A stretch of 64,000 bases of DNA from an uncultured Candidatus Saccharibacteria bacterium (GTDB lineage: Bacteria; Patescibacteriota; WWE3; UBA101185; UBA10185). The notes below the pieces were generated by a model. It was given only the letters and a program-made list of their open reading frames with translations, searched no databases and was not told the origin of the DNA. Location: contig CAYLVW010000003.1 in NCBI GenBank assembly GCA_964387275.1, forward strand, positions 45,796 through 109,795. Reading direction: 5' to 3'. Shown here piece after piece: positions 41,525 to 53,958 of the stretch; position 1 is the stretch's first letter, and the number at the start of each line of letters is the position of its first letter. Made by a program: the position numbers and the translations under genes.

Positions 41525-42508
41525 TCACTCATCATCATTAAAATCCTCACTATCTATTTCTTTATGAAATTTCTCATGTATGTCCTTTAACTGTTTGTTA
41601 GTGACATGGGTATAAATTTGGGTTGTTGATACATTTGAGTGACCTAATAACTCCTGGACAGAGCGCAAATCAGCCCCATTTCGCAGTAAATCCGTTGCAA
41701 AAGAGTGCCTCAGTGTATGCGGAGTTGCATCAACACTTATACCCGCTCTTAATGTATATTTCTTAACAAGTCTTTGAACACTTCTGACAGTAAGCCTCAG
41801 GGATTCACCCTCAAAATCTTCAGGCTCCATATGCTTACCACTATATCTAAGAAATAGAGGATCAAAACTGTCTATTCTGGTACCTAAATATCTTTTTAAC
41901 CAGCTCCTAGCACTTTCTCCTAAAAACACCATTCTTGCCTTACGACCTTTACCAATTACTGTAAACTCACCAGTATTTAAATTAATATCGCCTTTATTTA
42001 GCTTTACCAACTCACTTACTCGAAGACCAGTTGTAAAAAGTGTCTCTAAGATCGCCCTATCTCTTAAACCAGATTTTTTGTTTAAATCTTGCACTTCAAA
42101 TAATCTCTTCAGTTGATCATTGTCCAGTACTTTAGGGACCCTGTCTTCCATTTTCCCAAGAATAATCTGATCCGGGGAAATTACCTCAATTTTTTCTTCT
42201 ACCAGCAAATATTTTAAAAAAGCTCTTGCAGCAACCAAAAAAGTTTTTTGAGTAGTTCTTTTAAACTCGGTGTTAAATTTTTTGCTTTTGCGCCTGTTTA
42301 AATCCAATCTGTATTTCCTGATTAATTCTTCGCTTAAATCCTTGGCAGTTAACTTGTCCTTACTAAGCTGAGCAGAGCACCAGTCTAACATGTCAGTAAG
42401 ATAAAAGTGGTACATTTTTATGGTATTTTGAGACAAGTTTTTTTCAATCTCACAATGCTCTAAATATCTAATTAAAAGGTCGTGAAGGGTTTTTCCAGAT
42501 TGTGGCAT
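41525..42508 (-). CDS. Tyrosine site-specific recombinase (XerC/XerD family)
   Basis: C-terminal 'HTLRHSFATDLLRNGADLRSVQELLGHSNVSTTQIYTHV' (R..H..R..Y catalytic signature). Start set at the MPQSGKTLHD ATG. Confidence 0.85.
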   Translation of the reverse strand: MPQSGKTLHDLLIRYLEHCEIEKNLSQNTIKMYHFYLTDMLDWCSAQLSKDKLTAKDLSEELIRKYRLDLNRRKSKKFNTEFKRTTQKTFLVAARAFLKYLLVEEKIEVISPDQIILGKMEDRVPKVLDNDQLKRLFEVQDLNKKSGLRDRAILETLFTTGLRVSELVKLNKGDINLNTGEFTVIGKGRKARMVFLGESARSWLKRYLGTRIDSFDPLFLRYSGKHMEPEDFEGESLRLTVRSVQRLVKKYTLRAGISVDATPHTLRHSFATDLLRNGADLRSVQELLGHSNVSTTQIYTHVTNKQLKDIHEKFHKEIDSEDFNDDE

Positions 42509-42530
42509 AACATATATGTTAACAGATATT

Positions 42531-42560
42531 TGTATGGAGTTTAACGACATTAATTTATAA
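42531..42560. repeat. Direct repeat copy A (overlaps the xer 5' end and upstream)
   Basis: 'tgtatggagtttaacgacattaatttataa' against copy B 'tgtatgtttaacgacattgaattacat'. Confidence 0.6.
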
Positions 42561-43013: not shown

Positions 43014-43019
43014 ACTAAG

Positions 43020-43989
43020 ATGCCTCCTTTAGGCATAGTTCTTTCTCCGTCTACGATTTACAGTTTATACCACCCAGAGTCGTAGCGAGTCAAATGATTC
43101 AGCATACCTATTAATAATAATAATCGATCCTGGGGCATTCTAGAGGCCATATGCCAGAATTTGTTGCTACTACAAGTAAAACAAGCCTTTACATGTCCCA
43201 TATAGTGTATAGAGAACTAAATAAGGAGGAGTCTAGTCATTAAAAAGCAAAACTAGCGGCAAGGGAAAACTATAGTGATAGACAAAATAGGGAATAAATA
43301 AAAAACTAAAATAATTTTTCAAATTTTTTTATCTTACAAATAAATTACTTCGCCAAAATAAAAACTAAAAATAAAATATAGACTAATTTTTAGAGAGAAG
43401 CGCACTTTACTAGATATCTGAAACGTCGTTAAATGTATGTTTAACGACATTGAATTACATTTTAGGCCTTACTACAGTAACTAAAGAGATTCACAGGTAA
43501 AAAGAGAAGAGTTAGTAATCGGACAGTAATTTAATCCCGAATTTCACTAAATTAATCACTATAAAAAAATATTTAAATAAATAATAAATATATTATTAGT
43601 TTCTTAACCAGGCTCAACACCACAGCTTAAGTGATTGGGTTTGATATACCGCAGTCCTACATATCCACAAAGTCTACTCCCTGCACAGGTGGATATTACC
43701 TAAATTAGAATCAAAAATCATGGGTTTTTGTTGTTATATTAACCTAAAGAGGCATAACTATGACAAACCTCCATAAAAACTATGACAATCCTACAATGGT
43801 CATTAGAATATTATTATGACAAACGTACAACTATAGGTTAGCAGACTACCCTATAGTATGCTACCCTGCTTCTCTGTCCCATACTGTAACCCGAAAAATT
43901 ACCCAACAAATAATTACTCAATAATTCCCTTTTTATTGCAGTGAAAAGGAAAATAAAAACTCACGATATATTTTTTATAAATATTAAGC
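43020..43989. promoter_or_regulatory. 970-bp AT-rich ORF-free region with DnaA-box-like motifs and short direct repeats
   Basis: No ORF of 60 aa or more. 'atatccaca' at 43661 and 'ggtggatat' at 43688. Three copies of 'tatgacaa(a/t)c' at 43759, 43781 and 43815. Long A/T tracts. Confidence 0.4.
43444..43470. repeat. Direct repeat copy B (pseudo 5' end of xer, 'MSLN...')
   Basis: The reverse complement encodes 'MSLNIH...', mirroring the Xer N-terminus 'MSLNSIQ'. Contains the palindrome 'gtcgttaaatgtatgtttaacgac'. Confidence 0.55.
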
Positions 43990-46610: not shown

Positions 46611-47468
46611 CTATCTTAAATCATCTAAATCAGCCAAATCCTTAGTAGTTTCATTAGGAAGTGCAACAATTTTGGGCTTTACCTCATTTACTACTTTTAC
46701 TGGTTTTTTTTCTTCGACGGATGGGTTCGGTTTTGGCTTTGCTCTAGAAACACTAGATACTACTGCAGTAGTGGGTTTAGAGGCAGGATGACCTCCACCG
46801 ACACCTTTAAAACTCTGCCCCTGCTTTTTAACCAAAGAAGGTTTTGGTAAAGAATTGCTTTCAGATTTTTGAGTTATAACTGCGGGTGCTTCAGACTTTA
46901 CTACCTTATTAAATGCAGCAAATGGAGCAGATAAATTAGACTCTGGCAATACCACATCAATTAAATCGTTTAGCTTTACCTGATTAAACTCAATAGCTCT
47001 ATCTAGAAGTAAATGAGACCCAGCTTCGGTAAGAACATGCCATTTCCCTTCTTTTTTTGTAACAACACCCTCAAGATTTTTCCTTGCTACTTTTTCAATT
47101 TGTTTAAATACTTTCTTCCCATCTTCCTCAATAATTTTCAAAATATCTCCGTAGACTAATCTGGATTTAGCAGCATAATTGGAGGGAACCTCATGCTTAG
47201 AGCCATCTGAGGCAATAATGTATTTGCCATCGTACTTCCCCTCAACGCCCGGCATAGATTTGTAATCCTTTCTCTCCATAATAGCCTCCATTACATCTTT
47301 TGCGGAATCTAAAGCACGCTCAGCTGCATCAACTAGCTTCTTTAATTTGTTTAATTGGCTTTTTAGATTGGGGTCTTTGAGATCTACAGTTAGATCTTCT
47401 TTGTTTAAAACAATACTTGTATCTGCGTCAGATGCAGTATTTTGCGATAAATTTATTGTATCTGTCAT
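46611..47468 (-). CDS. Hypothetical protein with a Lys/Pro-rich C-terminal tail
   Basis: No motif. C-terminus 'KPKPNPSVEEKKPVKVVNEVKPK'. Downstream of the large ATPase. Confidence 0.4.
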   Translation of the reverse strand: MTDTINLSQNTASDADTSIVLNKEDLTVDLKDPNLKSQLNKLKKLVDAAERALDSAKDVMEAIMERKDYKSMPGVEGKYDGKYIIASDGSKHEVPSNYAAKSRLVYGDILKIIEEDGKKVFKQIEKVARKNLEGVVTKKEGKWHVLTEAGSHLLLDRAIEFNQVKLNDLIDVVLPESNLSAPFAAFNKVVKSEAPAVITQKSESNSLPKPSLVKKQGQSFKGVGGGHPASKPTTAVVSSVSRAKPKPNPSVEEKKPVKVVNEVKPKIVALPNETTKDLADLDDLR

Positions 47469-47615
47469 ATTTGCTCCTTTAATTAATGAGGTTCCGAGAA
47501 ATAAAATTTTCGGTACCTTCTTTTCTTGCGGGTGAAAGACCTCTCTTTCATATCTAGATTAAAACCTAAACTCTTTACCCGCTACGAAAATAAAATTTGA
47601 CTAACAAAATTATAA

Positions 47616-50186
47616 CTAATGATTGGCGGTTCCCGCAAATCTGGAAGAATCAGAGCCTCCTGAAACACTTCTAGACCCATCTGAAGGCTTTCTATCCTTA
47701 GCTTCCTGAGCAAGAGCTAATCCCTTATCAAAATTAGTTTCAACCCACTTATTTATTTTTTCTTCGACATAAATTCTATCAGTACCATACTTCTCCCTAC
47801 TTCTTGCAATTACCTTCTCCTTATTAGGGGTATTATTTATTATGTTGGAGCCAGATTCCCAAGGCAAAAGTATTCGTGCAGAAAAAGGCAAAGACGTCAT
47901 ACCATCTATCATAAGCTTGATATAAATGTTAAATCTCTCAAGCGATATAATATCACTTTGATCAAAATATGGCGCAAACTCGTTAGCTAATACCTTAGCA
48001 TCTGGAGCACCCAAAGAAAATGTTGCTATGGTACCGACATTACCAAAAACTGCTTTTAGTAAGTTCTCTGGCAACTGGTCTGTAAATTGGTGTGTCAAAT
48101 ACAAACCAAGTCCGTATTTTCGGGACTCTGATAATATTTCTTCAAAACTACCTGTTGCAAAATTTTGAAATTCATCAACATATAAGTAAAAGGGCCTTCT
48201 CTCTTTATAGGGTATCTTGGCTCTTTGTAAAGCCATAAACTGAATTCTAGAAACTAGTAAAGCTCCCAAAAGATTAGAGTTATCTGTACCTATCTTACCT
48301 TTGGATAAATTCATCAAAACAATCTTGCCGTTATTCATAGCTTCCCATAGATTTATTGTAGATTTTCGCTGTCCTAGAATATTTCTAATAGTTGTGGAAG
48401 CTAAAAACCTATTTACCTTGTTTTGGATAGGAGCTATGGCTTCTGTCGCAAATTTCTGATTTCCCTTTAGGTTTTTAAACTCGGTCTCCCAAAACCTAAG
48501 CACTACTGGATCCTTAACATAGTGGAGTATATACTTCCTGTAGTTATCATCCTCAAGCAATCTAGTTATGCCAAGTAGTGTGGTTCCAGGAACCTCCAGT
48601 AACGTCAAAATTGCGTAGTTAAGTAAATATTCCAATCTAGGACCCCAAGAAAAATCAAAATGGTGTTTAATAGCAGATACAAGGGCAGAAGCCATAATAT
48701 TTTTCTGAGAAGGGTCTTCCATTTCAAGCAGATTTAACCCTATGGGACGTTCTGTATCTGATGGGTCAAAGTAAATTACATCCTCGATTCTATTATCTGG
48801 AATGTGTTCTAAAACCTTATCTATAGTCTCACCATGAGGATCCAACACCCCAACGCCCGCACCATTTTGAATGTCCTGTGTGATCATGGTTTCGAGCAAT
48901 GTAGACTTACCTGTACCAGATTTACCAATTAGGTACATGTGCCTCAATCTATCATCGGTATTAGCCATCCCAAATCTAACCTTTGAACTTCTATACATAG
49001 TTTCTCCCATATAATTACAATCTGTAATTGGCAATGTTGACGGAGGTTCTGCTTTTTTTGAGTGTATCCAGGAAATATTTGGTGTTTCGACCTTATTAGA
49101 TGGCATATGATAGAGAGTTGCAAGCTCTTCAACATTCATAACAACAGCTCTCTCATCCTCGTACTGCCTCTTTATATAAGCATCTAGAGCATAATTTCTA
49201 TCATGTGATATTGTAGAAACAAACGCATTAGAAGATGTACTGGTAAACTGCTTTAAAGAAGCTACAACAGATCTGAGATTAGAAACTACCCTATCTTGGG
49301 TATTAGAAGAGGACATAACTCTAATAACAACCTTATAACCCATCTTGGCTAACTTATTCTCAATCCCACTTAACTCATTTTCCTGAACTGGAGTAAGTTT
49401 TGGAGGCCCAGCCGGCTTTACTGAAGCCACAGGCTTACCAAACCTATCAACCTCGGCGTTGTATCTAAAAGGCGATATAGCTATATTGGAAGCTAAATCC
49501 AGCATTTCCTTACCAATAGATCCCGCAAATTCAGCAAAAGGGTTGCTACCAGAGCTTTTCTTTAGATCTACCCCTTCCCTTATAGCGTTTGTATATTTGT
49601 AACCGTCATTTTGCCAAGTATCAGGAGTGGGTCTAACTAATACCTGCATCCACAAACTCTCTTCACCAAGCACTTCAGAAAAAGAAGAAGTTAACCCAGA
49701 TAATGGATCAGTCTCAAAATCTCTGAAAGTTTTTATTGGGAAAAAATCTGGTTTTGAAAAACTAAGGTAGCTTACCTCAAAAAAAGAATCACGGGGCGTA
49801 TATTTCTCAGTATAATCTGAAACAGGTATTAATTGAGCTGTGGGGTATTGAGCATAAAGCTGACTTTCTACAAATTTAATGGCGGATGGAGGGGCTGTAA
49901 AATAAAACTTCAAGCCTTCTCTACCAGTAGATACAATCTCAAAAGAAATGTTCTCCTGAACTATGGAGTCCTCCCTAAGAAGACCGTGTAAGGATGCGAA
50001 CATATTTTCTGCAGAAAGTGGGGAGGTTTCTAGTTGATTTTCATCAATTTTAGGTACGCGGATTTCAAAAACTTCAAAGGCACCGGAATTAGAAGCTGAG
50101 GTATCGATTTTAGAACCAAATCGTTTAAACGCTATAAAACCCCCGGTCAAGGCTATAAGACTAAAAACTATAAAATATATTGCCAT
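47616..50186 (-). CDS. Membrane-anchored P-loop ATPase of the HerA/FtsK/TraD (DUF87-like) superfamily with a large N-terminal domain of unknown function
   Basis: N-terminal TM. About 400 aa with no motif. 'RHMYLIGKSGTGKST' Walker A, 'VLDPHGE' and 'FYLYVDEFQNF' Walker B. 856 aa. Confidence 0.6.
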   Translation of the reverse strand: MAIYFIVFSLIALTGGFIAFKRFGSKIDTSASNSGAFEVFEIRVPKIDENQLETSPLSAENMFASLHGLLREDSIVQENISFEIVSTGREGLKFYFTAPPSAIKFVESQLYAQYPTAQLIPVSDYTEKYTPRDSFFEVSYLSFSKPDFFPIKTFRDFETDPLSGLTSSFSEVLGEESLWMQVLVRPTPDTWQNDGYKYTNAIREGVDLKKSSGSNPFAEFAGSIGKEMLDLASNIAISPFRYNAEVDRFGKPVASVKPAGPPKLTPVQENELSGIENKLAKMGYKVVIRVMSSSNTQDRVVSNLRSVVASLKQFTSTSSNAFVSTISHDRNYALDAYIKRQYEDERAVVMNVEELATLYHMPSNKVETPNISWIHSKKAEPPSTLPITDCNYMGETMYRSSKVRFGMANTDDRLRHMYLIGKSGTGKSTLLETMITQDIQNGAGVGVLDPHGETIDKVLEHIPDNRIEDVIYFDPSDTERPIGLNLLEMEDPSQKNIMASALVSAIKHHFDFSWGPRLEYLLNYAILTLLEVPGTTLLGITRLLEDDNYRKYILHYVKDPVVLRFWETEFKNLKGNQKFATEAIAPIQNKVNRFLASTTIRNILGQRKSTINLWEAMNNGKIVLMNLSKGKIGTDNSNLLGALLVSRIQFMALQRAKIPYKERRPFYLYVDEFQNFATGSFEEILSESRKYGLGLYLTHQFTDQLPENLLKAVFGNVGTIATFSLGAPDAKVLANEFAPYFDQSDIISLERFNIYIKLMIDGMTSLPFSARILLPWESGSNIINNTPNKEKVIARSREKYGTDRIYVEEKINKWVETNFDKGLALAQEAKDRKPSDGSRSVSGGSDSSRFAGTANH

Positions 50187-50325
50187 TTTTGCTCCTCCAT
50201 AAGCTTGTCATTAGGTACATGGTACCAATCTCTCTAAAAATTCTACTATAAATTAGAAACAATACCAGGTGCTGTTTTCAGTTATATAACAAGAAAAAAG
50301 CGACAGATATTAAATCACCCCCGTC

Positions 50326-50354
50326 CTAATTTTGGACGAGGGTGTAGAAAGGAG
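50326..50354 (-). terminator. Possible terminator after the LCP gene
   Basis: Imperfect hairpin 'cacccccgtcc'/'ggacgagggtg'. The T-run lies about 15 nt away. Confidence 0.3.
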
Positions 50355-50372
50355 AGAGACAATACAGTCATG

Positions 50373-51452
50373 TTAATATAACTCAGACGCTTTGTCAAAT
50401 CCTAATATCACAACAATATCTGACCTATCAAGCTCGGCATCACCTACACCCACAACTTGCTCTTTGGTCACTACCTTTGTAATACCAAAAGTATTTTGCA
50501 ACCACGAAACAGTCTCAGAACCCTTATTAGAAGTAATAATTAAGCTCTCTTGATAAAGAGCATCGGAGTTACCCACCGAAACAACACGCACGTTCATATT
50601 TTCTACAACCCTCGCTCCAAAACTAGCAAAACCTCCCTTACCAGATCCATTTAATACAGACACAGTTAATGCTTCATGCTCAACTGCAGAGTCAGAGTTG
50701 AAATCTCGTACAAAAGAATCCAAATCAGTTGGATCTGTTATGTAAGTTTCTGAAAAGTTATACTTATATACCCTTTCTTCAGGAAGCTGAGACAAAAACT
50801 TTTGCATCTCTAATAAATCCCTAATTGTCATGTCTGTTTTAACATTAGTCTGAAACTCTCTTATAGATTTCAAATTAGTTAAAGAGTTAATTAAACCCGT
50901 TTCAAACAATTTGTCCGCATTTTCAATGTAAGAACCATTAACTAGTATGAATTTATCGACCTTAAAACCAAATATCTTTGAGACACTCTTTCGTAAGAAC
51001 TCGGTTCCTTCACCCACAGTACTACCCTCGTTCATCATACCTACCCTAAAAGCCTTACCAATCTCCTCATCAGAAAGGTTTCCAGGCATATCAACTACAG
51101 TTTTTGGGTTTATTGTGTATATGACAAGCTTATTTGTATTTTTTTGAAATAAGTAATACTTAATTCCTAATACTTCAGCTTCTTTGTCATTTAATGAGCT
51201 AACATTTACCTGCATTAGGGTAAAAATATCCAAAGATGATAAATCCTGCGAGTTTGAAGAAAATGCTGACACAAAACTAGATTGAAAAGATTTATATAAT
51301 AGCCCTCCCCCAAGCACTAAGACACTAAGTGAAAAAATCCCAGTAAGTATTAAGGACGAAACAACAAGTCTGGCAGACTTAGAGCGTTTTAAAACGTCGA
51401 TGTGCAGGATACTTCGTTTTTTTCTAATTCTATAGGCAGGATTTTTGGGCAT
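50373..51452 (-). CDS. LytR-CpsA-Psr (LCP) family protein
   Basis: N-terminal TM and an LCP-like core with a C-terminal LytR_C-like segment ('ALTVSVLNGSGKGGFASFGARVVENMNVRVV'). Confidence 0.7.
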   Translation of the reverse strand: MPKNPAYRIRKKRSILHIDVLKRSKSARLVVSSLILTGIFSLSVLVLGGGLLYKSFQSSFVSAFSSNSQDLSSLDIFTLMQVNVSSLNDKEAEVLGIKYYLFQKNTNKLVIYTINPKTVVDMPGNLSDEEIGKAFRVGMMNEGSTVGEGTEFLRKSVSKIFGFKVDKFILVNGSYIENADKLFETGLINSLTNLKSIREFQTNVKTDMTIRDLLEMQKFLSQLPEERVYKYNFSETYITDPTDLDSFVRDFNSDSAVEHEALTVSVLNGSGKGGFASFGARVVENMNVRVVSVGNSDALYQESLIITSNKGSETVSWLQNTFGITKVVTKEQVVGVGDAELDRSDIVVILGFDKASELY

Positions 51453-53025: not shown

Positions 53026-53958
53026 TTATTTACTGTGGGCAATACAAGTGGTAGCTTCTGGGAAGGCTTTTAAACGAGCTGTTTCTATAGGACTGTTACA
53101 AACCTCACATATCCCGTATTTACCTATTTTTAGTCTTGCTAAAGCTTTCCTAACGAGTACTTGCATAGAATTTACACTGGCTTTTTGCCTATCAATATCC
53201 TCTTTTCTAAGATCCTCTAAAATGGCTTCGTCTAACTCTTCTGAATTTCCAACTGCCCTATCGCCTTTTAAGTAAGGATCTTCCTCAGTAAGCTGTTTTT
53301 GCTCCTTGTCCAGTCTCTTTTCTTTATTAATTAGAGTATCTTTAAAAAATTTTAATAGTCCTTCGGAAAGTTTATTATTTGGCATATCTCGTTTAAACCT
53401 AAAATATAAATTAACTGTACTTAGTGTAACTAATATTAGGTAAAAGATCAAATATGGAACTGTGCGTATGATTGAAACACCAAGCAAAACCCCGACACAA
53501 ATAAAAAACGAAAAAATAATCCCGGATTTTAAACTTTTATCACGAAGTTTTGTAAATGTTACAACAGAAACAAAGTAGACAAAACTAATTATCAGATCTA
53601 GGGGTGCTTTATTAACAAAAAATTTCCCAAAAAAGTATACGAAAATACTTATAGACCAAGAGAGGCTAAATATATCCAGTACCCTAAAAACTGACCATCG
53701 CCAAAATCTCGACAATATAAAAATAGGAAGTAAAGCCCCAATAATGTAAGAATATACCCCAAGAGAACTAAATATAAACAATACTGAGGATAAGACTGAG
53801 GTTAGTATGAATAAGTCGAACAGTTTAAATTCTACGAAACCGTCCCTCCTACCTAGAAACCATACTACAAAAGAGGAAGTAAAAATACCTAAACCCCCGA
53901 AAACATATAGTGTCCTTAGTGAAAAAAATCCTAAATTTAAAATCTCAGGCAACTGCAT
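53026..53958 (-). CDS. Polytopic membrane protein fused to a C-terminal DksA/TraR-type zinc finger
   Basis: About 200 aa of TM helices and a charged linker. C-terminal 'CEVCNSPIETARLKAFPEATTCIAH' resembles DksA 'CEECG..IPEARLKA.P.A..C..C'. Confidence 0.55.
   Translation of the reverse strand: MQLPEILNLGFFSLRTLYVFGGLGIFTSSFVVWFLGRRDGFVEFKLFDLFILTSVLSSVLFIFSSLGVYSYIIGALLPIFILSRFWRWSVFRVLDIFSLSWSISIFVYFFGKFFVNKAPLDLIISFVYFVSVVTFTKLRDKSLKSGIIFSFFICVGVLLGVSIIRTVPYLIFYLILVTLSTVNLYFRFKRDMPNNKLSEGLLKFFKDTLINKEKRLDKEQKQLTEEDPYLKGDRAVGNSEELDEAILEDLRKEDIDRQKASVNSMQVLVRKALARLKIGKYGICEVCNSPIETARLKAFPEATTCIAHSK

Follow-up and report, generated by a model that had tools for sequence, protein, structure and literature searches.

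A putative coupling-protein/VirB4-branch ATPase and its partner protein in the core chromosome of Patescibacteria

A 64-kb stretch of patescibacterial DNA (hereafter the window, meaning the whole stretch that was analysed) encodes an 856-aa membrane-anchored ATPase followed by a 285-aa protein (KP285). No T4SS, relaxase or oriT-like feature was found within these 64 kb. This locus raises the question of which family of motors the ATPase belongs to and what it would move. The ATPase was assigned to the type IV secretion coupling-protein (T4CP)/VirB4 branch of the FtsK-HerA superfamily, inherited vertically in Patescibacteria. The overall best explanation, with a probability of about 0.55, adds to this core ATPase a presumed motor activity and an adaptor role for KP285.

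Domain layout and family of the ATPase

The ATPase displayed an N-terminal transmembrane (TM) anchor, a DUF8128 domain resembling the VirB4 N-terminal domain (NTD) and a coupling-protein-like nucleotide-binding domain (NBD) with an all-alpha insertion, in this order (Table 1). Both open reading frames were present exactly as announced in the preliminary description, and so was the single N-terminal TM segment of the ATPase. In a Kyte-Doolittle scan, no other segment exceeded 1.6. The TM segment, followed here by KRFGSK, was kept in 27 of 30 homologues, always with K or R next to it; these basic residues would place everything after the anchor in the cytoplasm (N-out/C-in).

Table 1. Features of the ATPase locus (positions within the window)
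Feature	Position	Strand	Basis or remark
KP285, 285-aa partner protein	46611..47468	-	translation
KP285 acidic C-terminal tip ADLDDLR	46614-46634	-	conserved in alignment A3
KP285 variable K/P/E-rich linker, aa 191-273	46650-46898	-	
KP285 conserved ~155-aa core, aa 36-190	46899-47363	-	alignment A3
Shine-Dalgarno AGGAG, 5' of KP285 ATG	47474..47478	-	read from sequence
856-aa membrane-anchored ATPase	47616..50186	-	ORF and translation
NBD with inserted all-alpha domain, aa ~388-830	47697..49025	-	Pfam, alignment, model
Walker B (YVDE), aa 667-672	48171-48188	-	
All-alpha insertion, roughly aa 490-605	48372-48719	-	
Walker A GKSGTGKS, aa 421-428	48903-48926	-	
Linker motif H-x-P...TPNISW...K-x-EPP-x-x-LP, aa 360-386, joining both domains	49029..49109	-	invariant columns
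DUF8128 domain, aa ~36-360, VirB4-NTD-like fold	49107..50081	-	
N-terminal TM anchor, aa 2-24 (hydrophobic segment aa 1-23)	50115..50183	-	Kyte-Doolittle scan and modelled helix aa 2-24
Shine-Dalgarno GGAGGA	50193..50198	-	read from sequence; 6 nt 5' of ATPase ATG
Terminator-like hairpin, 11-bp stem, 8 G-C pairs	50316..50344	-	consensus scan and sequence
359-aa single-TM LytR_C / LCP-like envelope protein, upstream neighbour	50373..51452	-	Pfam LytR_C 1e-6; TM aa 26-53

All P-loop motifs quoted earlier were recovered (RHMYLIGKSGTGKST at aa 415-429, LDPHGE at aa 448-453 and VDEFQNF at aa 670-676). Residues G421, K422, G426, K427 and S428 of Walker A, D671 and E672 of Walker B, and Q700 were invariant across 30 homologues, and the NBD is, judged by its sequence, catalytically intact. 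In the model, the helices of the all-alpha insertion (492-604) sit between strands 470-473 and 622-626. Pfam models TrwB_AAD_bind (PF10412; 37.1 bits, cut-off 20.5, aa 415-707) and T4SS-DNA_transf (PF02534; 20.9 bits, cut-off 20.1) were matched, while PF12696 scored 20.3 bits, slightly under its cut-off of 22, which it exceeded in homologues. DUF87 (34.1 bits) covered the NBD only. Local NCBIfam matches comprised CedD (the top one), TraD and VirD4-like CD1115, as well as VirB4_plasma at 19 bits only. The best PDB sequence matches, all weak, were HerA and TrwB for the single protein and TrwB for the family profile, and Foldseek retrieved TrwB (E 2e-9) and HerA (3.5e-9) with the model. By sequence, the NBD was closest to T4CPs (TrwB/TraD/VirD4), the similarity to characterised ones being limited to the P-loop region. 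The translocase type proposed at the outset was borne out, as a membrane-anchored FtsK/HerA-superfamily ATPase of TraD/VirD4 (coupling-protein) kind.

Like TrwB of R388, TraD and VirD4, the ATPase combines a membrane anchor, an FtsK/HerA-type NBD matching T4CP models, and an all-alpha domain between Walker A and Walker B. Unlike canonical T4CPs, it has one TM helix instead of two, inserts a VirB4-NTD-like domain of roughly 330 aa between anchor and NBD, and is a chromosomal core gene; neither a linked relaxase/Dtr module nor a T4SS (Mpf) cluster was found in the 64-kb window. With VirB4 (TrwK of R388) it shares a two-domain plan, in which about 400 N-terminal residues precede a C-terminal ATPase, and the full-length model aligned end to end with TrwK (Foldseek E 7.6e-14). 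It differs from VirB4 in matching no VirB4-specific Pfam model (AAA_10 / CagE_TrbE_VirB) and in its surroundings, no VirB3, VirB6, VirB8 or pilin gene being found beside it in the window.

The NTD had been described as novel and devoid of recognisable motifs. It is uncharacterised, but not unrecognised: precomputed Pfam matches assign PF26449 (DUF8128) to the identical protein and to each of the 120 homologues listed, while aa 1-429 gave no match in a local Pfam copy that has no PF26449 model. The 14 best Foldseek matches of the modelled domain were all TrwK, so that the structural check proposed earlier retrieved a known fold, that of the VirB4 NTD. The linker joining both domains contained invariant columns H360, P362, W373, E380, P381, P382, L385 and P386 (alignment A1); its model confidence was low (pLDDT <50 over aa 361-381), and it might act as a docking peptide.

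Other members of the superfamily fitted less well. Pfam gave no match in the ATPase to the FtsK/SpoIIIE domains PF01580, PF17854, PF09397 and PF13491. The assignment to a canonical FtsK, against which the preliminary description had guarded, did not materialise, and Southlakia has in addition a canonical FtsK, made up of 4TM, alpha, motor and gamma domains, which is essential (PMC10633639). HerA would be expected to carry a HAS-barrel where this protein has a VirB4-like NTD, and no NurA gene was found nearby.

The partner protein and a probable transcription unit

KP285 consists of an N-terminal coiled-coil helix, a core, a K/P/E-rich linker and an acidic C-terminal tip. Ten core residues (G77, G81, P95, N97, Y98, K101, G107, D108, K111 and K122) were invariant in alignment A3, where the terminus was conserved as [DE][DE]DL[RV] and the linker before it poorly so. 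Searches with KP285 in Pfam, NCBIfam, PADLOC and the PDB gave no match. The lysine- and proline-rich basic tail reported earlier is present (K15, P11, V12, S11 and a net charge of +7 over aa 191-285). Its suggested binding to the cell wall is unlikely, since neither a signal peptide nor a TM segment was found in KP285 and the tail amounts to a variable linker with a conserved acidic DDDLR tip at its end; KP285 is cytoplasmic. In relatives, the partner lay downstream of the ATPase with a gap of 8-16 nt, and in one genome (L004) the KP285 core was fused to the C-terminus of the ATPase (aa 960-1086). As displayed by this adjacency and fusion, KP285 is a genuine lineage-specific partner of the ATPase, in agreement with the functional link first supposed between the two.

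In the window, both genes lie on the same strand, 147 nt apart, each with its own Shine-Dalgarno sequence, and a consensus scan found no minus-strand terminator-like site between them. A strong terminator-like hairpin lies between the ATPase and the LytR_C gene upstream of it. This arrangement suggests that the pair forms its own transcription unit, a reading kept tentative because the T-run of the hairpin is weak (ATTTAATATC). Co-transcription, as first described, is plausible on these grounds.

The LytR_C neighbour was syntenic in WWE3-like and Dojkabacteria relatives (L006, L008, L083 and L085), and in most other CPR classes an unrelated sigma70_r4/HARE-HTH gene replaces it; it is probably outside the ATPase system. 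The lack of VirB-like partners, first reported for the immediate surroundings, extended over the whole 64 kb. No G+C anomaly was found at the ATPase locus.

Relatives and distribution

Outside CPR, the family profile matched the gene that opens plasmid transfer operons in Bacillus and Shouchella (E 1e-52 to 1e-58); this gene adjoins a Replic_Relax gene upstream of TcpC and an AAA_10 VirB4, while the AAA_10 VirB4 of the same Bacillus plasmids was missed by this profile. It also matched a haloarchaeal TraM-recognition T4CP (1e-39) and the neighbouring separate N-domain gene (1e-23); this split N-domain/ATPase form was found in some CPR genomes too (L048, L051, L062 and L080-L082). Both domains of these Bacillus/Shouchella "DUF87 domain-containing" ATPases and of the haloarchaeal pair are homologous to the window protein over their full length. 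The plasmid proteins differ by having no TM anchor, by lying beside Replic_Relax and Mpf genes, and by an identity of only about 24%. The closest non-CPR relatives hold the coupling-protein position by the relaxase gene in Bacillus conjugative plasmids, with relatives in haloarchaeal T4SS clusters, and the NTD has counterparts there, which further removes its novelty.

Across CPR/Patescibacteria classes, at least 598 species genomes carried a member of the family, and more than 1,769 homologues were listed, those named being all Patescibacteria. The housekeeping synteny of the region was identical in WWE3-like relatives. A neighbour-joining tree displayed two CPR clades, A (with the window protein) and B, which are old paralogues, with the plasmid proteins outside. 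In 3,035 Patescibacteria genomes, 5,713 T4CP homologues were reported from 2,918, and only 148 of these homologues lay near virB4 (PMC12102498). They occurred in 96% of assemblies vs 80% for VirB4, which forms a separate monophyletic patescibacterial group at about one per genome, and relaxases were rare (109 in 3,035 genomes) (PMC12102498). The family corresponds to these roughly 5,700 orphan "T4CP homologues" published in 2025 (PMC12102498) and is hence already known. Nearly all ultra-small Patescibacteria keep it in the core chromosome, and since T4CP homologues are commoner than VirB4, many genomes may have the ATPase without a T4SS.

In Southlakia epibionticum, synteny and domain coordinates point to SEML1_0293 as the likely ortholog; it shares the Pfam layout (PF10412 at 402-719) and shows the TopA / sigma70_r4-HARE-HTH synteny of clade-A genes in Saccharibacteria loci. 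It was non-essential in Tn-seq while T4SS genes were essential (PMC10633639 Table S1), so that the T4SS does not strictly require it. Another T4CP-like gene of Southlakia, SEML1_0142, was essential (PMC10633639) and probably falls in clade B. Saccharibacteria proteins differ from the window ATPase by long C-terminal extensions and have no adjacent 285-aa partner at that position. One homologue (P0115) bears a C-terminal S1 domain, and the C-terminal extensions of other lineages include CxxC zinc-ribbon-like motifs as well as basic tails, all of which hint at a nucleic-acid substrate.

Possible roles of the ATPase

The coupling-protein/VirB4-branch reading proposes descent from the long ATPases that hold the coupling-protein position in conjugative elements of monoderms and archaea; such an ATPase would then have been fixed in the core chromosome, apart from relaxase or Mpf genes. 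On the cytoplasmic side of the membrane, the ATPase would form an ATP-driven oligomer, probably a hexamer, that works as a motor and is docked to membrane partners by its VirB4-like N-domain. The NBD and all-alpha domain would engage a macromolecule, with nucleic acid or nucleoprotein as the likeliest substrate, and pass it to a channel, for which the T4SS that Patescibacteria encode at another place in the genome is the obvious candidate. We infer that the function is probably such an ATP-driven hand-over. KP285 would serve as a lineage-specific cytoplasmic adaptor with a folded core, a disordered linker and a conserved acidic DDDLR tip, a tether-plus-tip layout that resembles, by analogy, SSB-type partner-binding tails. 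Several results speak against this reading: no T4SS, relaxase or oriT-like feature in the 64 kb, a wider spread of T4CP homologues than of VirB4, the non-essential SEML1_0293 beside essential T4SS genes, a similarity to characterised T4CPs limited to the P-loop region, and a PADLOC mad8 score above that of every T4CP profile.

An exaptation for a T4SS-independent chromosome role, as an FtsK/SpoIIIE-like membrane-tethered translocase for segregation, dimer resolution or repair, is unlikely, although several neighbours point to it. In the window, YebC, RuvC, a XerC/D-like recombinase and a conserved dif-like 11-6-11 palindrome lie 2-4 kb from the ATPase. In Saccharibacteria, TopA and a sigma70_r4/HARE-HTH DNA-binding protein precede the ATPase and a FtsQ-MurG-FtsW-MraY cluster faces it, this HTH protein is fused to it in one genome (L032), and T4CP homologues outnumber VirB4 in the phylum. 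However, neighbours vary by CPR class (LytR_C vs sigma70_r4/HARE-HTH), so that vertical inheritance alone may account for the synteny, the ATPase has neither an FtsK gamma domain nor a PF01580 match, and in Southlakia it is the separate FtsK, not SEML1_0293, that is essential. Since the sigma70_r4/HARE-HTH gene is likewise essential and the ATPase gene is dispensable, the two are unlikely to form an obligate pair.

More doubtful still is a cytoplasmic motor of nucleic-acid uptake, working with a type IV pilus and ComEC to scavenge host DNA for nucleotides. VirB4-like ATPases power DNA import in other systems (ComB, Ced), CedD was the top NCBIfam local match, and the window holds a large pilus cluster (PilB, PilT, PilC, PilM, PilO and prepilin peptidase at 8-29.5 kb). 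In favour as well, Patescibacteria are described as lacking nucleotide synthesis and as naturally competent (PMC10633639, as relayed by PMC12857230). This cluster is, however, about 18 kb away with gyrase genes between, and in other classes it shows no synteny with the ATPase; neither a ComEC nor a ComF gene was found nearby. Competence of Southlakia was shown to depend on ComEC, and what PMC12857230 relays of PMC10633639 reports no link to the ATPase.

A degraded or cryptic integrated conjugative element, with the ATPase as its coupling protein that still mobilises DNA, is very improbable. The coupling-protein position of its closest non-CPR relatives and the tyrosine recombinase about 5 kb away would fit, but this recombinase resembles XerC/D (255 and 247 bits) and has a dif-like site of its own, related genomes keep the entire region in synteny as housekeeping DNA, relaxase, Mpf genes and a compositional break are all absent, and relaxases are as rare in the phylum as noted above. 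A HerA/mad8/DndH-type defence ATPase, one of the roles first entertained, is scarcely credible: the PADLOC mad8 match (47.6 bits, above every T4CP profile score), the weak HerA and DndH matches and the Foldseek matches to the DndH C-domain and HerA-NurA span the generic NBD only, no nuclease, methylase or other MADS, Dnd or NurA partner was found nearby, the neighbours gave no PADLOC match, and the gene, conserved in at least 598 species genomes, shows core-genome synteny unlike defence islands.

The window gene is one further member of a family already reported and sampled by Tn-seq, and uncharacterised. Handles for testing the cargo of the coupling-protein/VirB4-branch ATPase are its VirB4 N-terminal fold, its coupling-protein-position relatives in monoderms and archaea, and its lineage-specific adaptors, including the fusion; they also bear on the relationship between VirB4 and coupling proteins. 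It is a speculative idea that, in Patescibacteria, a hybrid VirB4/T4CP motor was domesticated as a core machine that works without a T4SS and moves nucleic acid across or along the membrane. If this were true, a TM-anchored ATPase with its own adaptor (KP285 here; S1 or zinc-ribbon tails elsewhere) would serve, for example, RNA/DNA exchange with the host cell, and two ancient paralogs would have split roles. With about two copies in 96% of assemblies of the tiny-genome Patescibacteria, more than for the T4SS, the role of the family is likely central to the epibiotic lifestyle.

Architecture and predicted fold of the ATPase

Both open reading frames of the preliminary description, for an 856-aa ATPase and a 285-aa protein downstream of it, were found in the window. 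The ATPase carried the single N-terminal transmembrane (TM) segment reported for it (hydrophobic residues 1-23, then KRFGSK; other TM segments absent), and the LDPHGE and VDEFQNF strings were verified in its translation. A TM segment with basic residues after it was present in 27 of 30 homologues, and the whole soluble part of a protein anchored in this way should be cytoplasmic. The catalytic site was intact, with a Walker A motif at residues 421-428 (GKSGTGKS) and a Walker B motif at residues 669-672 (YVDE). In alignment A1 of the ATPase family, mean column identity was 60% and the catalytic residues were invariant; judged from this alignment, the family is very strongly conserved.

Features of the window and their positions within it
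Feature	Position	Strand	Description
Type IV pilus cluster	8003-29539	-	
XerC/D-like recombinase gene	41525-42550		
Spacer	43014-43989		ORF-free, AT-rich
dif-like site	43410-43454	-	ATGTCGTTAAA-CATACA-TTTAACGACGT, 11-6-11
(T/A)TTGTCATAG repeats	43759-43823	-	three copies in ~65 bp
Partner ORF	46611-47468	-	285 aa
ATPase ORF	47616-50186	-	856 aa
DksA/TraR-like protein	53026-53958	-	310 aa

The C-terminal half matched the Pfam models TrwB_AAD_bind (37.1 bits), DUF87 (34.1) and T4SS-DNA_transf (20.9), all three above their gathering cut-offs. NCBIfam gave only local, P-loop-level matches (CedD, TraD, VirD4-like CD1115 and mycoplasma VirB4), and sequence searches of the PDB, run with the protein alone or with the family profile, also returned P-loop-level matches only. 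Residues 1-429 had no match in the local Pfam copy. The N-terminal region of about 400 residues, first described as novel, corresponded to PF26449 (DUF8128) and was therefore already catalogued; its function is unassigned, and no papers on DUF8128 were found in the literature search.

The predicted structure of the N-terminal domain displayed a VirB4-like fold. With an AlphaFold model of residues 28-392 (pLDDT 76, pTM 0.73), TrwK chains made up the 14 best Foldseek matches, at E values from 1.7e-7 to 3.8e-5, and the first match after them was at 5.6e-3. The full-length model (pLDDT 70) aligned end to end with TrwK (E 7.6e-14), and more weakly with TrwB (2e-9) and HerA (3.5e-9). These matches indicate that the protein has the overall plan of VirB4, with its N-domain ahead of the ATPase half. 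The sequence of this ATPase half, however, is closer to that of coupling proteins, and in the model it included their typical helical insertion (helices 492-604). The part of the T4CP review PMC7434980 that treats VirD4-, FtsK- and Archaea-type T4CPs does not mention a VirB4-like N-domain.

The 285-aa partner and the genomic context

The ATPase was linked to the 285-aa protein and, in one relative, fused with it: in L004, the core domain of the partner formed residues 960-1086 of a 1,097-aa ATPase (57% identical), a fusion that favours physical association of the two proteins. At least 11 of 36 partner homologues were found on contigs of the same size as those carrying ATPase homologues. Profile searches of Pfam, NCBIfam, PADLOC and the PDB gave nothing significant for the 285-aa protein, returning only coiled-coil noise and sub-threshold SH3/PUA-like hints. 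Alignment A3 of the partner (26 sequences) displayed four parts: an N-terminal coiled-coil helix; a conserved core (residues 36-190, with invariant G77, G81, P95, N97, Y98, K101, G107, D108, K111 and K122); a K-, P-, E- and S-rich linker whose length and composition varied freely; and a C-terminal tip, [DE][DE]DL[RV] (ADLDDLR in the window protein), whose conservation was striking. The four Saccharibacteria versions had neither linker nor tip. The K/P-rich basic tail was borne out, the last 95 residues being rich in K, P, V and S with a net charge of +7. Its suggested binding to the cell wall was rejected, as the protein had no signal peptide or TM segment and only the acidic tip of the otherwise variable tail was conserved; the tail would rather be a cytoplasmic disordered tether. 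In layout, the 285-aa protein appears to resemble SSB-type hub proteins, in which a disordered linker connects a folded domain to an acidic tip.

Good Shine-Dalgarno sequences preceded both genes, the 147-nt gap between them contained no minus-strand terminator-like site, and a strong hairpin was found 3' of the upstream LytR_C gene, so that the pair, described earlier as co-transcribed, is probably a transcription unit in its own right. In two WWE3-like relatives the gap was 8-16 nt and gene order was kept, with DnaB, EF-P, a DksA-like protein, RluA, a LytR_C-like protein and the ATPase followed by the 285-aa homologue, TPR, YebC, a hypothetical protein and a Xer-like recombinase (RuvC was present in one of the two). 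The LytR_C protein was rejected as a partner because of the terminator-like hairpin between its gene and the ATPase and because this synteny was found only in WWE3-like and Dojkabacteria relatives, other classes having an unrelated gene there. In Saccharibacteria and several other classes, the gene upstream of the clade-A ATPase (clade A being one of two old groups of the family) encoded a ~350-aa sigma70_r4 + HARE-HTH (+ Rok-like wHTH) protein. This gene was directly upstream of the ATPase in about 52 of 82 loci (e.g., L013, L028) and fused to it in one genome (L032:4777-8799); TopA usually preceded it, and an FtsQ-MurG-FtsW-MraY cluster lay on the opposite side. Its product was rejected as a universal partner, being missing from the window and essential in Southlakia epibionticum (SEML1_0294, annotated RpoS; PMC10633639 Table S1), where the likely ortholog of the ATPase is not.

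The window is ordinary core chromosome. It encoded RecG, RNase III, a type IV pilus cluster, GyrB, GyrA, RNase HII, an IMPDH/GMP-reductase family protein, a XerC/D-like recombinase, RuvC, YebC, an RluA-type pseudouridine synthase, EF-P, DnaB, HisRS and a class-I peptide chain release factor. Rfam and tRNA scans gave a tRNA-Leu only, and no G+C anomaly was detected. VirB-like partners were missing nearby, as noted before (no VirB4 or VirB6 gene within the window), and neither a relaxase gene nor a second ATPase paralog was found there.

The dif-like site was located in the spacer about 860 bp from the XerC/D-like recombinase gene, with RuvC and YebC adjoining. Its arms were complementary at 10 of 11 positions, it was invariant in three related genomes, and it is probably a chromosome dimer-resolution site, placed beside the recombinase gene as in XerS/XerH systems. 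The (T/A)TTGTCATAG repeats of the same spacer were partly conserved in relatives and could be iteron- or operator-like; two exact TTTGTCATA copies so close together were unusual, and three copies in the whole window were not significant (6 of 100 shuffles reached three). The type IV pilus cluster comprised PilO, PilM, prepilin peptidase, PilC, PilT and PilB, a run of ~160-200-aa ORFs, possibly pilins, and two ~920-aa proteins with weak GBS_Bsp-like repeats. In the 310-aa protein, the last ~110 residues were DksA/TraR-like (C4 zinc finger) and the N-terminal ~200 had no family match; one relative carried an LGT (prolipoprotein diacylglyceryl transferase) domain in this region.

Distribution and relatives of the ATPase family

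In core synteny, the ATPase was spread over several classes of Patescibacteria. More than 1,769 homologues came from a word-indexed search; the best 120 were 58-98% identical over the full length, and wherever a source gave an organism name, it was Patescibacteria (WWE3, "Patescibacteria group") or unclassified "bacterium"; precomputed PF26449 and DUF87 were found in all 120, and TrwB_AAD_bind too in most. A scan of one genome per species confirmed at least 598 relatives, 80 of which were kept (Saccharibacteria, Dojkabacteria, Peregrinibacteria, Peribacteria, Uhr-, Nomura- and Buchananbacteria), and the N-domain alone accounted for 2,054 clusters at 50% identity. In a neighbor-joining tree without bootstrap support, the window protein was placed in clade A with WWE3-like, Dojka-, Peregrini- and Nomurabacteria sequences and Saccharibacteria paralog A; clade B was distinct, and Bacillus plasmid proteins were outside both. 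Some genomes harbored tandem paralogs, the order in L010-L012 and L078 being paralog B, a 285-aa-protein homologue, the sigma70_r4/HARE-HTH gene and paralog A. The two clades fit the literature figure of about two T4CP copies per genome; 5,713 VirD4-type T4CP homologues were reported in 2,918 of 3,035 Patescibacteria genomes (Quinonero-Coronel et al. 2025, PMC12102498).

C-terminal extensions of the ATPase varied by lineage (L051:7207-9180, L082:6978-9107, L010-L012/L078) and included CxxC...RP(V/M)YCxxC zinc-ribbon-like motifs, arginine-rich or basic tails, an S1 domain (in the homologous protein P0115) and a conserved PR(I/V)F(K/R)YQN...YKEQTA(R/K)GGVKWF(I/V)G motif. The S1, zinc-ribbon-like and basic modules weakly suggest a nucleic-acid substrate. 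DUF8128 and the ATPase were separate neighbouring ORFs in six CPR genomes (L048, L051, L062, L080, L081, L082) and also at L090:7935-12156. Such splits, with gaps of 1-10 nt or an overlap, occurred in several Uhr-/Buchananbacteria-type genomes and haloarchaeal plasmids, and indicate that the N-domain is able to act as an independent subunit.

Homologues of the ATPase occupy the coupling-protein position in conjugative elements of monoderms and archaea. Searching plasmids with it by tblastn gave 421 records, mainly from Streptomyces, Bacillus, Staphylococcus, Clostridium, haloarchaea and Sulfolobus (query coverage of at least 80% in 26 records). In Bacillus subtilis and Shouchella clausii plasmids, the homologue, a ~885-aa "DUF87 domain-containing protein", opened a transfer operon, and thus holds the coupling-protein position, before a Replic_Relax protein, TcpC, an AAA_10-type VirB4 and further conjugal-transfer genes. 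On a haloarchaeal plasmid, the N-domain was a 395-aa gene of its own, immediately 5' of a "TraM recognition domain" T4CP, in a cluster that also encodes a pilin and a transfer protein of 1,100 aa. The family profile matched both domains of the Bacillus plasmid proteins (E 1e-52 to 1e-58), the haloarchaeal T4CP (1e-39), its N-domain partner (1e-23) and a Clostridium ATPase adjoining VirB2 (4e-34), and gave no match to the AAA_10 VirB4s on the same Bacillus plasmids. Unlike the Patescibacteria ATPase, plasmid homologues had no TM anchor.

Proposed function and alternatives

The ATPase is a further member of a reported, functionally uncharacterised family. The observation made in the preliminary description was confirmed and its interpretation partly supported. 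An obligatory T4SS role is disfavoured, since T4CP homologues are more numerous than VirB4 in the phylum and the likely Southlakia ortholog is non-essential. Only 148 of the 5,713 T4CP homologues were near virB4, VirB4 was present in 2,417 of the 3,035 genomes, and the authors suggested that Patescibacteria T4CPs may have been exapted (PMC12102498). The likely ortholog, SEML1_0293, is found 3' of the sigma70_r4/HARE-HTH gene and TopA and was non-essential by Tn-seq, with read counts dropping over time (Wang et al., PMC10633639 Table S1). It likely belongs to clade A, by synteny and domain coordinates rather than by sequence comparison, and it alone fits the statement of a non-essential Southlakia t4cp homologue in PMC12102498. 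A second T4CP-like protein, SEML1_0142 (1,019 aa, P-loop at 381-800), and the product of the 139-aa gene upstream, SEML1_0141, were both scored essential (PMC10633639 Table S1).

The ATPase would be a membrane-tethered oligomeric motor, docked to membrane partners by its VirB4-like N-domain, with the 285-aa protein as adaptor. Nucleic acid or a nucleoprotein may be the substrate that it passes on, the most plausible recipient being a Patescibacteria T4SS encoded elsewhere. Action on the cell's own chromosome, to which RuvC, Xer, the dif-like site and TopA in the neighbourhood would point, seems unlikely and is weakened by a separate essential FtsK (SEML1_0096, the canonical Southlakia FtsK; PMC10633639 Table S1). 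This FtsK, together with the non-essential likely ortholog, also led to rejection of the ATPase as an FtsK replacement. A motor for DNA uptake is somewhat less probable still. Membership of a cryptic ICE is highly improbable given the Xer identity of the recombinase and the conserved synteny, and the earlier idea of a defence ATPase, for which generic NBD matches are the sole support, is the least credible.

Three findings appear to be absent from the literature searched: that DUF8128 has a VirB4-like fold, that plasmid relatives hold the coupling-protein position, and that there is a partner ending in an acidic tip. Although the locus is still no new type of system, these findings make the family more tractable.
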